The notes under the pieces were generated by a model. That model saw only the letters and a list, made by a program, of their open reading frames with translations. It had not been told where the DNA came from and did not search any database. Source: a virus (lineage: Duplodnaviria > Heunggongvirae > Uroviricota > Caudoviricetes). Taken from it: 64,000 nucleotides of DNA. The position numbers and the translations under genes were made by a program. This document shows positions 66 through 43,458 of the stretch, piece by piece; positions within the stretch are counted from its first letter, which is position 1; each line of letters opens with the position of its first letter. Where the stretch lies: the IMG/VR virus record IMGVR_UViG_3300006201_000003, positions 95 through 64,094 of that record; one strand, 5' to 3'.

Positions 66-139
66 AGGGGTTTGGTGTAATGGTAGCATAACAGTCTCCA
101 AAACTGTTGGTGAGAGTTCAAGTCTTTCAGCCCCTGCCA
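66..139 (+). tRNA. trnW: tRNA-Trp(CCA)
   Basis: Acceptor AGGGGTT/AGCCCCT, anticodon arm ACAGT-CTCCAAA-ACTGT, T loop TTCAAGT, encoded CCA. Confidence 0.95.
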
Positions 140-142
140 AAT

Positions 143-218
143 GCTGACATAGCTCTAATGGTAGAGCGGTTGCCTCGTAAGCAATATGTTCAGAGTTCAA
201 GTCTCTGTGTCAGCTCCA
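143..218 (+). tRNA. trnT: tRNA-Thr(CGT)
   Basis: Acceptor GCTGACA/TGTCAGC, anticodon arm TTGC-CTCGTAA-GCAA, T loop TTCAAGT, encoded CCA. Confidence 0.95.
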
Positions 219-560
219 ATCGCCCGATTGAGATAACATATCACGTGTGTGAGTGGCGCACGGAATCCAAGGTGGCCTCCAGCGATGGAGTGACTGGGCG
301 TAAAAGAAATAGCGGTTAGGTGCCGTTGTAGCACCAAAGGTAGGCTGAAATCTGTCTGGGCCATAGCCGCAAGTATGGTGTGCTTGTTACATCGAAATCC
401 TTGGTAGACTTTGACGGGAAACACAAATCCCCCTGCTCCTCAATAGAAAGGCTGAAAGGACTACAGCTTTGCATATGAAGCTGAGTTGTGGTGGTAATAT
501 GGCACAGCGTAAAGGCGTGTGGTGAGGCTGGGAGTGGAGTCACTTTTACAACATACATAT
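219..560 (+). ncRNA. Candidate large structured ncRNA between tRNA-Thr and tRNA-Tyr (family unassigned)
   Basis: About nine short helices, GNRA tetraloops (GCGA 282-285, GCAA 369-372), possible pseudoknot CCAAGG 267-272/CCTTGG 399-404, no RBS-led ORF. Confidence 0.6.
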
Positions 561-649
561 AGGGGAGCGCCGAAGTCGGAGAGTCGGGGCGGTCTGTAAA
601 ACCGTTGCGTTTATGCGCTGAGTGGGTTCGACTCCCACCTCCCTTACCA
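561..649 (+). tRNA. trnY: tRNA-Tyr(GTA)
   Basis: Anticodon arm GCGGT-CTGTAAA-ACCGT, long variable arm, T arm GTGGG-TTCGACT-CCCAC, encoded CCA. Confidence 0.92.
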
Positions 650-652
650 TAT

Positions 653-745
653 GGCGGAATTGACCCCAGTAGGTGCGGGGAGCAGTCTTGAAAACTGTTG
701 GCCGTGATGAGCGGCTTGTGGGTTCGAGTCCTACTTCCGCCGCCA
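653..745 (+). tRNA. trnS: tRNA-Ser(TGA)
   Basis: Acceptor GGCGGAA/TTCCGCC, anticodon loop CTTGAAA, long variable arm GGCCG..CGGCT, encoded CCA. Confidence 0.95.
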
Positions 746-814
746 CGGAACATCTTCGTAGTCCCGATAGAACGTACAGCTCTGGCCCGGAGTACATACG
801 AGGAAGGGCAAATT

Positions 815-882
815 TGAGACACGTACAGCAATTTGTTTGACTCCAAAATCAAACCCTGACCGTCAAATCAGGTAGTGTCTCA
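815..882 (+). ncRNA. tRNA-like element lacking a D arm, Trp-like anticodon loop
   Basis: 8-bp closing stem TGAGACAC/GTGTCTCA; GTTTGA-CTCCAAAA-TCAAAC arm; CCTGA-CCGTCAAA-TCAGG arm; no CCA end. Confidence 0.55.
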
Positions 883-891
883 TATACATAT

Positions 892-967
892 GCGCCAGTA
901 ATTCAGCTGGTAGAATAACCGCCTTTTAAGCGGTAGGTCGAAGGTTCGAGTCCTTTCTGGCGCACCA
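892..967 (+). tRNA. trnK: tRNA-Lys(TTT)
   Basis: Acceptor GCGCCAG/CTGGCGC, anticodon arm ACCGC-CTTTTAA-GCGGT, T loop TTCGAGT, encoded CCA. Confidence 0.95.
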
Positions 968-37058: not shown

Positions 37059-37271
37059 GCGATGCGAGGTCAAATGGAGTAACTTCGGTGAAAGACGACC
37101 TTCGCAAAAGGAGAAATACTTCCCTGGCTTTTGCCTAAAACTGCCCTTCGACGGCTCTACACGGACGCTGCTTGCATGGCGGGCTATTGCGCTAACCCGT
37201 TCCATGTGTCGAGCCAAAGTAGTTTAGATGCGCACCAACAAAACAACTATGCGGAGGAGCGAATACTTTCT

Positions 37272-38435
37272 ATGACAAGTGAAGAGCGCCACGAGGCGCG
37301 ATATCGCCGCCGAAAGGCCAAGCGGTTGGCGAATAAACGAAAAAGAAGCGAAGCGGTAGGAACTCTGGAGGATATCTTCAACTACCGTGATATGTTCTTT
37401 TATGGCAAAAAATGCTGCAACGGTGTACGTTGGAAGCAAAGCACTCAAAACTTTGAACTCCATCTGTTTTCTGGTACGGCAAGACGGCGGAAGCAGATTT
37501 TAGACGGAAAGTGGAAACCGAAAAATTGCGTCCACTTTACTCTACGTGAACGTGGTAAGGTTAGACCGATTGATGCACCTCACATTGAAGACCGACAAAT
37601 TCATAAGGTGGAGAGCAATAAGGTTTTGATTCCGCTTTATACCCCAAGCATGATCCACGATAACGGAGCAAGTCAGAAGAACAAAGGACTTCATTGGCAT
37701 TTCCATCGTATGAAAGAACAGCTTGGATGGCATTATAGGCGTTATGGTAGAAGTGGTGGAATCCTTCTGTTGGATTTGAAGAGTTTCTTTCCAAGCGCAA
37801 ATCGTAGTATCATCTATGAGCGGCATAAGCAAATGATGTTTGATGATAGGGTGCGGGCTTTTGCAGATGCGGTTGTAACATATGCCCCAAGTACAGCACC
37901 TGGTCGTGGTATGCCCCTTGGTGTGGAGCCGAGTCAACAGGAAATGGTTGCGCTACCAAGTGCGGTTGATAACTACATTAAGTGCCAACTTGGAATCCAT
38001 TGTGCTGGACATTATATGGACGATTACTATATTATTCTTCCAGACATTGAAGAGTTAAAGAAAGTCGGCCATGATATTGTCGATAAGTTCATTGAGTCTG
38101 GTATTCCAGTCAATAAGAAGAAGTGTAAAATCATTCCTTTGACAAGGCCGTTTCGCTGGTGTAAGGCAAGATTTACATTGAAAGAAAATGGCAAGATTAC
38201 TGTGAATGGAAATCGTGCGGGCATGAAGAGTGCAAGGCGTAAACTGAAACTCTTCCAGCGTGAATATATTGCTGGAAAGCGGACGTTGGCCGAGATTGAT
38301 CAGTTTATGGAAAGTCAAACGGCGTATTACAGAGGCTATAATGACCATGGCCGTCTATTGAGGTTGCGCCGTTTACACTACGCTTTATTCAACAAATATC
38401 GTATTCAAGAACAGCAAGGAAAACAAGTTGCATAA
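37272..38435 (+). CDS. brt: DGR reverse transcriptase
   Basis: GMPLGVEPSQ and HYMDD RT motifs; start MTSEERH after GGAGG (ORF track extends to 37131). Confidence 0.93.
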   Translation: MTSEERHEARYRRRKAKRLANKRKRSEAVGTLEDIFNYRDMFFYGKKCCNGVRWKQSTQNFELHLFSGTARRRKQILDGKWKPKNCVHFTLRERGKVRPIDAPHIEDRQIHKVESNKVLIPLYTPSMIHDNGASQKNKGLHWHFHRMKEQLGWHYRRYGRSGGILLLDLKSFFPSANRSIIYERHKQMMFDDRVRAFADAVVTYAPSTAPGRGMPLGVEPSQQEMVALPSAVDNYIKCQLGIHCAGHYMDDYYIILPDIEELKKVGHDIVDKFIESGIPVNKKKCKIIPLTRPFRWCKARFTLKENGKITVNGNRAGMKSARRKLKLFQREYIAGKRTLAEIDQFMESQTAYYRGYNDHGRLLRLRRLHYALFNKYRIQEQQGKQVA

Positions 38436-43340: not shown

Positions 43341-43458
43341 GCTGGAAAGTGAATAAAAGTACAATTTGGTTTGGCGAATGAGGTTGGAAATGGCTCCCGA
43401 CACTCCAGCAATGGAACCTGAGATGCAGGATATGCCGCCCTGCTATTCGCCAAATATC

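Follow-up and report, generated by a model that had tools for sequence, protein, structure and literature searches.

A conserved, pseudoknotted non-coding RNA family associated with tRNA arrays and RNA-repair genes in phages of gut Clostridia

The gap between the tRNA-Thr(CGU) and tRNA-Tyr(GUA) genes of the phage described here harbours, as comparative sequence analysis indicates, a real and intricately folded RNA of about 330 nt (221-552), which is compact and stapled by two long-range pseudoknots. The family is found in neither Rfam 15 nor the searchable literature, where no paper describing this RNA was detected; an anonymous entry in large viral-RNA catalogues is possible. As the best explanation of the evidence as a whole, we favour with moderate confidence a stable ~330-nt RNA of a new family that acts in trans within a phage counter-defence based on tRNA repair and replacement. 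All positions refer to the window, meaning the whole analysed stretch of 64,000 nucleotides, which corresponds to bases 95-64094 of an IMG/VR virus record (138,206 bp, direct terminal repeats).

A long non-coding segment in the phage tRNA array

Based on ARAGORN predictions, the gap between tRNA-Thr and tRNA-Tyr (219-560) spans 342 nt, compared to 3-nt spacers elsewhere in the cluster (Table 1). This agrees with a preliminary description of the window, made from the sequence alone, which had drawn attention to the unusual length of this gap. The remainder of the array is located at the opposite end of the virus record and comprises 12 further tRNAs, a ROOL RNA and a tmRNA, so that the gap 219-560 represents the third long non-tRNA segment of one array. 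No ORF spans the gap, and the indels found among homologs are not multiples of three, including one of 41 nt, which argues that the element is non-coding.

Besides this element, the tRNA arrays of gut Clostridia phages host several other non-tRNA RNAs, namely ROOL, tmRNA (also present in the relatives L003, L031 and L011) and at least one further conserved block. The latter is a second non-coding segment directly before tRNA-Lys, shortened to 146 nt in the window (746-891) and 250-350 nt long in relatives. Its conserved words include CCGGUGAAAnUCCGG and GGGACUUYGAGAGCCUGAGAAAGU, and no Rfam match was obtained for it. A module consisting of GACGnGUGACGGUUCUGACnCGUC followed by UAAAAUAAAAAnUGACCG is common to the pre-tRNA-Lys block of L006 (3570-3620) and to an insertion in hairpin H5 of the L027 homolog of the 221-552 RNA (about 125-230), which suggests a small, putatively mobile RNA module. 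Elsewhere in the window, Rfam models identified an RT-2 RNA and a skipping-rope RNA; the latter also occurs within the tRNA array of L109 (3671-3766). Some long gaps of related tRNA arrays are filled not by RNAs but by small ORFs with ribosome-binding sites, and the ORF in the L021 gap resembles an HNH-type nuclease with CxxC pairs.

Table 1. Coordinates of the 221-552 RNA, its structural parts and related features. Positions are those of the window unless a locus is named.
Feature	Position	Strand	Details
tRNA-Trp	66-139		ARAGORN
tRNA-Thr(CGU)	143-218	+	ARAGORN, Rfam tRNA model; CCA end 2-3 nt ahead of the RNA element
Structured RNA, minimal extent	221-552	+	5' limit, pair 221-300; 3' limit, PK2 (552 or beyond)
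5' domain	221-300	+	H1-closed junction with invariant strand 227-243, H3, PK1 5' strand (267-272) and variable hairpin H5
H1	221-226/295-300	+	98.6% canonical; 223-298 exchanged between CG and UA
H3	244-249/257-262	+	7-nt loop 250-256; 99.2% canonical; 2 covarying pairs
PK1	267-272/399-404	+	CCAAGG/CCUUGG; 97% canonical; 3 covarying pairs
H5	274-294	+	Hairpin in 43/43 homologs, sequences unrelated
Three-way junction	312-370	+	H6, H7, H8
H6	312-318/364-370	+	97.6% canonical; 313-369 exchanged between CG and AU
H7	319-323/331-335	+	Loop 324-330; 98.1% canonical; 4 covarying pairs
PK2	325-330/547-552	+	GUUGUA (H7 loop)/UACAAC (3' tail); long-range pairing
H8	about 339-345/354-362	+	Stem sequences swapped between groups
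Variable arm	371-397	+	Missing from the 309-nt L030 type; extends to about 150 nt in L049 (alignments)
3' domain	413-543	+	H9, stacked closing helices H10 and H11, optional H12, H13
H9	416-418/431-433	+	RNAalifold on 3' domain
H10	433-440/530-537	+	99.1% canonical; 5 covarying pairs
Invariant strands of 3' domain	443-449; 452-459		AUAGAAA; CUGAAAGG
H11	450-453/526-529	+	3 covarying pairs
H12 (optional hairpin)	460-464/488-492	+	2 covarying pairs
H13	503-508/515-521	+	Loop GUAAAG; 100% canonical; 3 covarying pairs
tRNA-Tyr(GUA)	561-649	+	ARAGORN; begins 8 nt past PK2
tRNA-Ser	653-745		ARAGORN
tRNA-Lys(UUU)	892-967		ARAGORN
RT-2 RNA	37065-37280		Rfam, 167 bits
Skipping-rope RNA	43373-43451		Rfam, 71 bits
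ROOL RNA, full-length	L056 7051-7639 (G000 about 135,257-135,845)		379 bits; between tRNA-Thr(UGU) and tRNA-Ala
tmRNA of the same phage	L056 7783-8209 (G000 about 135,989-136,415)		93 bits
Block before tRNA-Lys in relatives	L003 3551-3848; L006 3545-3843; L021 3493-3848; L031 3272-3555		L031 on minus strand
ORF-bearing array gaps	L021 2839-3258; L010 2057-2493; L003 2448-2711; L006 2201-2449
Deletion remnants	L052 6328-6429; L053 2079-2180; L069 295-354; L050 about 645-685		About 16 further loci
Metatranscriptome contigs	226-537; 242-528; 232-519; 242-506		226-537 is a whole contig of 312 nt; 232-519 has sequencing adapter at both ends

Homologs in phages and prophages of gut Clostridia

Homologs were collected via a neighbouring protein (P0001), which led to 24 related viral loci, and by exact-word scans with three conserved blocks, which added viral, bacterial-genome and metagenome contigs. 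Altogether, approximately 75 full-length copies were identified (nhmmer), corresponding to 44 distinct sequences of 241-479 nt that are 58-95% identical to the window copy. The carriers are large uncultivated phages and prophages of gut Clostridia. Bacterial contigs carry three of the copies, one each from an Oscillospiraceae bacterium, a Clostridiaceae isolate and a Clostridia MAG; the L046 contig derives from a cultured Clostridiaceae strain. According to the sample labels, many of the metagenome contigs originate from human gut, and the DNA runs containing the window from mouse gut. Comparison with GenBank phages (blastn, 11-base words) gave no match to the element, which is therefore present in no cultured phage of that collection.

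Natural variants delimit the core of the RNA. The shortest version (L087, 241 nt) has no three-way junction, and L004, L048, L049, L116 and L095 have no H12; the core thus consists of the 5' junction, PK1 and the 3' domain. Remnants of 95, 60 and 36 nt, the products of three different internal deletions, precede tRNA-Lys at about 20 loci of the L031 lineage. Each deletion is flanked by short direct repeats (AAGGUG, AUCC/GUGG, GAGUGG) and recurs in human-gut contigs of one phage lineage, and 36-56 nt from the 5' end and 15-48 nt from the 3' end of the RNA are retained in all remnants. Since these deletions arose independently, the RNA appears to be dispensable in this lineage.

Covariation supports a fold with two pseudoknots

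In order to describe the fold, eleven curated helices comprising 59 pairs were evaluated in window coordinates across the 44-sequence alignment. Overall, 95.5% of the pairs were canonical and 28 pairs were changed on both sides in a compensatory manner. When the 3' partner was slid by 1-3 columns, only 36-45% of the pairs were canonical, with 8-12 double-sided pairs, and shuffling of columns resulted in 88.7 ± 0.3% canonical pairs. Along the alignment, conserved blocks alternate with hairpins that change in sequence and retain their pairing. The outermost pair (221-300) is canonical in 38/43 sequences and occurs as CG, UA, UG or AU. The fold of the single sequence is ordinary (z = -1.3 on the plus strand, -0.09 on the minus strand), and the case for structure is therefore comparative and not thermodynamic. 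We assigned the RNA to the plus strand, the same as that of the tRNAs, because, read from the opposite strand, the invariant U-G pairs 434-536, 248-258 and 453-526 would become A-C.

Within the 5' half, most of the helices proposed in the preliminary description were recovered. Those at 221-225/296-300, 245-261 and 319-335 correspond to H1, H3 and H7 and are retained with compensatory changes, and the hairpin at 277-290 (H5) is formed by differing sequences in 43/43 homologs, including that of L027 with its 100-nt insertion. The helix drawn at 339-356 is roughly retained as H8, with limits differing from those proposed (Table 1). In contrast, the hairpin suggested at 361-378 is canonical in only 58% of cases, and its segment 364-370 pairs with 312-318 instead. 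In the 3' half, the earlier pairings did not hold: the helix at 448-470 is canonical in 62%, that at 485-508 reaches 84% in conflict with H12 and H13, and 438-442/523-527 (75%) had been placed in the wrong register, the real pairings being H10 and H11. The helix proposed at 532-545 is broken in sequences where H10 is compensated. A repeat of GGCTGAAA, noted earlier, does occur twice (343-350 and 450-457), of which only the second copy is conserved in relatives.

The pseudoknot PK1, already anticipated from the sequence of the window, is borne out by three covarying pairs and by variants such as CCAAAG/CUUUGG, CCAGGG/CCCUGG, CCGAGG/CCUCGG and CAUAGG/CCUAUG. Going beyond the preliminary description, we found a second pseudoknot (PK2) connecting the loop of H7 with the 3' tail. 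In PK2, 256/258 alignment cells are canonical, four of the six pairs are changed on both sides, and the pairing is formed in all 43 sequences that keep H7 (variants GUUGCA/UGCAAC, GUUAUA/UAUAAC, GACAUA/UAUGUU, GUCAUA/UAUGAU and GAUAC/GUAUC).

Applied to the 3' domain alone, RNAalifold independently recovered H9, H10, H11 and H13 with 11 compensated pairs. A covariance model of this domain (R1, 131 positions) scored 146 bits on the window. Several further pairings were considered. The invariant helix GAUA/UAUC (232-235/239-242) was rejected, as it is broken without compensation in three sequences. Pairing of the tail GUC (539-541) with 292-294 was dropped because GAC there is part of an extended H5 in divergent members; a candidate pairing of the same GUC with 413-415 showed one-sided changes only.

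The element is recovered from metatranscriptomes

In four metatranscriptome runs from two mouse-gut studies, the element was assembled each time as one short stand-alone contig containing the element only (Table 1). Coverage in the RNA runs was zero on positions 1-222, on 556-629 and on the coding sequence at 963-1100; these uncovered parts of the window serve solely as an internal contrast. DNA contamination would be expected to yield contigs extending into the flanks. The contigs thus provide supportive evidence that 221-552 is expressed as RNA, and as assembled contigs they give neither its exact ends nor its strand or level. Together with conservation, covariation and the position in the tRNA register, these stand-alone contigs support one of the alternatives raised in the preliminary description, an unclassified RNA released by tRNA processing.

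No match to established RNA classes

At the gathering score, no Rfam 15 family was detected in 219-560, and with permissive filters (E ≤ 10) nothing was found on the plus strand of the element in the window or in 16 related loci. The sole overlapping Rfam hit was a minus-strand match to HOTAIR_3 (16-18 bits), which we attribute to chance. The Rfam scan proposed in the preliminary description thus returned no family, and covarying pairs were found across the 44 sequences. Its suggestion of a GOLLD/ROOL-class domain finds no support as a statement of homology: neither at its gathering score nor at E ≤ 10 did the ROOL model (RF03087) match 219-560, whereas a comparable scan gave 379 bits for the phage's own ROOL, and no Rfam match to GOLLD was obtained in the window or the 16 related loci. 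What the element has in common with GOLLD and ROOL is solely its niche in a phage tRNA island.

It might be argued that the element is a highly diverged form of a known RNA, such as tmRNA, a group I intron, RNase P RNA or the specificity domain of the latter, or that it derives from a series of decayed tRNA genes. Three short words resembling the type A RNase P specificity domain occur in the same order (AUAGAAA, CUGAAAG and loop GUAAAG versus ACAGAAA in J11/12, GUGAAAa in J12/13 and GUAAGAG in the P13 loop), and the length is similar. However, the topology differs, there is no model-level similarity, RF00010 and RF00011 (RNase P types A and B) remained unmatched at E ≤ 10, and the P4 words GAGGAAAGUCC and ACAGAAnnnGGCUUA are absent. 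Neither ARAGORN nor Rfam indicated a tmRNA in 219-560, the sequence has no GGUUCGA-type T arm, and the phage encodes a tmRNA of its own. No group I or group II intron was matched by Rfam, and both flanking tRNAs are complete, which argues against an intron. The failure to recognise tmRNA, RNase P or intron cores in the initial inspection was accordingly confirmed by the Rfam 15 scans at E ≤ 10. No tRNA or tRNA-like call was made on 219-560 by ARAGORN or RF00005 even at E ≤ 10. When the element was locally aligned with 23S, 16S and type A RNase P RNA of the host and with ROOL and tmRNA of the phage, the scores remained within the shuffled null (z between -1.1 and +1.0). Likewise, model R1 found no match in host RNase P RNA, rRNAs, ROOL, tmRNA or related phages without the element, and among 151 Clostridia genomes it matched only the known prophage; a 28-bit match in G035 reads as coding sequence and was judged spurious. 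Given these results, we consider a diverged known RNA or a decayed tRNA-gene run highly improbable.

The element does fall among the large structured RNAs of phage tRNA islands, understood as a kind and not as a homologous family. It is longer than 200 nt, occupies array positions in three independent arrangements, is supported by 28 compensated pairs plus two pseudoknots and is represented by metatranscriptome contigs.

Genomic neighbourhood and proposed function

A link to RNA-repair genes, likewise not part of the preliminary description, emerged from the genomic neighbourhood of the family, which proved the most telling part of the analysis. Full-length copies with enough flanking sequence are located either in a tRNA array or beside RNA-repair genes, bar three contexts (the loose tRNA region of L048/L088, L087 with tRNA-Gly 117 nt downstream, and L116, a 1.3-kb contig). 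In the array class, a tRNA begins 5-15 nt downstream of the RNA. This is tRNA-Tyr(GUA) in the lineage of the window and the L003, L004, L019, L020 and L023 types, and tRNA-Lys(UUU) in two unrelated arrays, i.e. the L031 type and the differently ordered array of L109, whose copy is 65% identical. Non-array copies lie within 0-2.3 kb of genes for RNA ligase, Pnkp-like proteins, RlaP or CCA-adding enzymes (within 2.8 kb in L049/L110, where RNA ligase and metallophosphoesterase are the neighbours). A Pnkp-like kinase/phosphatase/Rnl1-ligase fusion is encoded 0-40 nt downstream in L051/L070/L076/L098 and L062/L063; in its place, L065 encodes the Rnl1 ligase as a gene of its own, along with a metallophosphoesterase on the opposite strand. 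In L095, the gene 34 nt downstream encodes an RNA ligase with a PHA02142 OB domain; in the L030 type (15 or more loci) such a ligase is found at a distance of 2.25 kb, and L027 and L066 have RlaP and a CCA-adding enzyme as neighbours. No single protein-neighbour family was consistently present (Pfam, PHROGs). In L049, the gene string downstream of the copy that contains RNA ligase and phosphoesterase also includes a class-V aminotransferase (cysteine-desulfurase-like, PF00266; 7870-9033), for which a connection with tRNA thiolation is conceivable.

In comparative genomics, the tRNAs of phages have been grouped with ligases, polynucleotide kinase/phosphatases, RlaP and CCA-adding enzymes as one counter-defence against host attacks on the translation apparatus (PMC7824862). 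For RlaP, it was shown later that the enzyme adds nucleotides to damaged RNA ends and is required to restore the function of badly damaged tRNAs (bioRxiv 10.64898/2025.12.29.696909). It is because of its exclusive genomic company, either tRNA arrays or RNA-repair genes, that we infer a role of the 221-552 RNA in this pathway. In this phage, transcription of the RNA proceeds together with the tRNA array, and host tRNA-processing enzymes cutting at the flanking tRNAs would release it. It could then act in trans in the programme that repairs or replaces tRNAs cut by host defence nucleases, most likely as a folded platform binding a component of the pathway, either damaged tRNA or repair enzymes. 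The adjoining repair gene differs between lineages, so that a single constant protein partner is not to be expected. It is also unlikely that the RNA acts as a simple splint, since no conserved stretch is complementary to tRNA loops; the only matches to phage tRNAs are GU-rich and lie in the non-conserved H12. As a counterpoint, the tRNA array could be a mere convenient expression site for a stable RNA, as assumed for ROOL and GOLLD.

The close spacing to downstream genes would also be expected of a cis-acting, riboswitch- or T-box-like leader that senses a signal, e.g. tRNA damage, and controls the gene or tRNA directly downstream. In every context (Pnkp-ligase, RNA ligase, RlaP, small ORFs, tRNA-Tyr, tRNA-Lys) the following gene or tRNA has the same orientation as the element and begins 0-40 nt after it, and in L051 a hairpin followed by UUUUA separates it from the ligase gene. 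However, in arrays a tRNA and not an ORF follows, and the downstream gene is not the same in all lineages. PK2 engages the 3' tail in all 43 sequences that keep H7, with no conserved alternative pairing or expression platform visible. Regarding terminators of the stand-alone copies themselves, no terminator-like site was scored following the L051 copy, and the hairpin at L048 terminates transcription of the opposite strand. Moreover, the RNA accumulates apart from its flanks, yet terminated leaders can do so too. Taken together, we regard a leader function as rather unlikely.

tRNA-Tyr(GUA) and tRNA-Lys(UUU), directly ahead of which the element is positioned, are classical targets of anticodon nucleases. 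Cleavage of tRNA-Tyr by Septu has been reported (PMC13096335). The RNA might be a decoy that both binds and blocks a host tRNA-cleaving defence nuclease and shields these and other tRNAs, which would fit its co-localisation with other counter-defence genes. Moreover, five bases of the tRNA-Tyr anticodon loop CUGUAAA (G34-A38) recur in the invariant H13 loop GUAAAG. Against this, the loop reads AUAAAG in L087 and L102, and no part of the RNA is tRNA-like to tRNA models or ARAGORN. The 7-nt H3 loop (UGAGUGG) is variable and has no U33, and the H5 loop comprises 4-5 nt of free sequence. Finally, the high sequence conservation across phages of different hosts is unexpected for an RNA facing fast-evolving nuclease targets. 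In our view, a decoy is an unlikely reading.

Sharing its array with ROOL, the element could alternatively form a self-assembling RNA-only particle without a role in RNA repair, the array providing strong transcription and processing only. ROOL and GOLLD form homo-oligomeric cages (PMC12286853), and the element is similarly large, pseudoknotted and without a consistent protein neighbour. However, GOLLD is more than twice as long and ROOL, at about 580 nt, is also considerably longer, a self-complementary conserved loop was not found, and the RNA-ligase proximity of the non-array copies (nine context classes) would have to be coincidence. We consider such a particle quite improbable.

Within the preferred reading of a trans-acting RNA of tRNA repair and replacement, a more specific version is conceivable, albeit doubtful. 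The RNA may serve as a cofactor of phage tRNA repair whose 3' domain is a tRNA-elbow-docking module, comparable to those of the ribosomal L1 stalk, T-box leaders and the RNase P specificity domain. In this scenario, the pieces of cleaved tRNAs (Tyr, Lys and others) would be kept together by the RNA and handed over to the repair enzyme that the respective phage provides, be it a ligase, an end-healing enzyme, RlaP or a CCA-adding enzyme. If true, RNA repair would thereby gain its first RNA chaperone or guide. More generally, an RNA participant in the phage-bacteria arms race over tRNA cleavage is a testable idea. Intricately folded natural RNAs of large size are seldom found, and every new class has added to the understanding of RNA biology. 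The assets of the 221-552 RNA are a well-determined secondary structure, signs that it is expressed in the gut, natural minimal versions of 241 nt (L087) to 275 nt (L048) and deletion alleles that have arisen in nature.

Comparison with known systems

The closest parallels in genomic setting are ROOL (RF03087) and GOLLD, which are likewise large, pseudoknotted, covariation-supported phage or prophage RNAs in or beside tRNA arrays and abundant as RNA. The 221-552 RNA differs from both in showing no sequence or model similarity, in being shorter (241-479 nt) with another architecture, and in adjoining RNA-repair genes outside arrays, unlike ROOL and GOLLD as reported. Compared to these RNAs, it thus comes with a sharp genomic clue, as it travels with tRNA genes and tRNA-repair enzymes.

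A tie between a structured non-coding RNA and RNA ligase or repair genes is also known from Y RNA/YrlA with Ro60 (Rsr) in the RNA-repair operons (rsr-yrlBA-rtcBA) of bacteria and phages, where the RNA is made beside tRNA-like processing signals. In contrast to these, the 221-552 RNA has no adjacent Ro60 gene and no Y-RNA family match, is about three times larger, and its 5' and 3' ends form no Ro-binding stem.

In phage T4, the tRNA cluster yields two stable RNAs (species 1 and 2, rnaC/rnaD; about 120-140 nt) that are co-transcribed with the tRNAs and cut from the same precursor, and T4 carries Pnkp and Rnl1 for tRNA repair. They resemble the 221-552 RNA as stable non-tRNA RNAs accompanying phage tRNAs but are much smaller. 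To our knowledge, no pseudoknotted multi-domain fold has been described for species 1 and 2, and we expect no homology.

The 3' domain, in turn, recalls the type A RNase P specificity domain, in which the J11/12-P12-J12/13-P13 module docks the tRNA T arm. Both have two stacked closing helices around A-rich junction strands and a hairpin, with the words AYAGAAA and SUGAAA and a GUAAR loop in order. The differences are that the 221-552 RNA has no catalytic domain or P4, that H11 is placed between two of the words where RNase P has P12, and that model-level similarity is absent in either direction. As a hypothesis, this likeness would fit the genomic context if the 3' domain were a tRNA-elbow-binding module.
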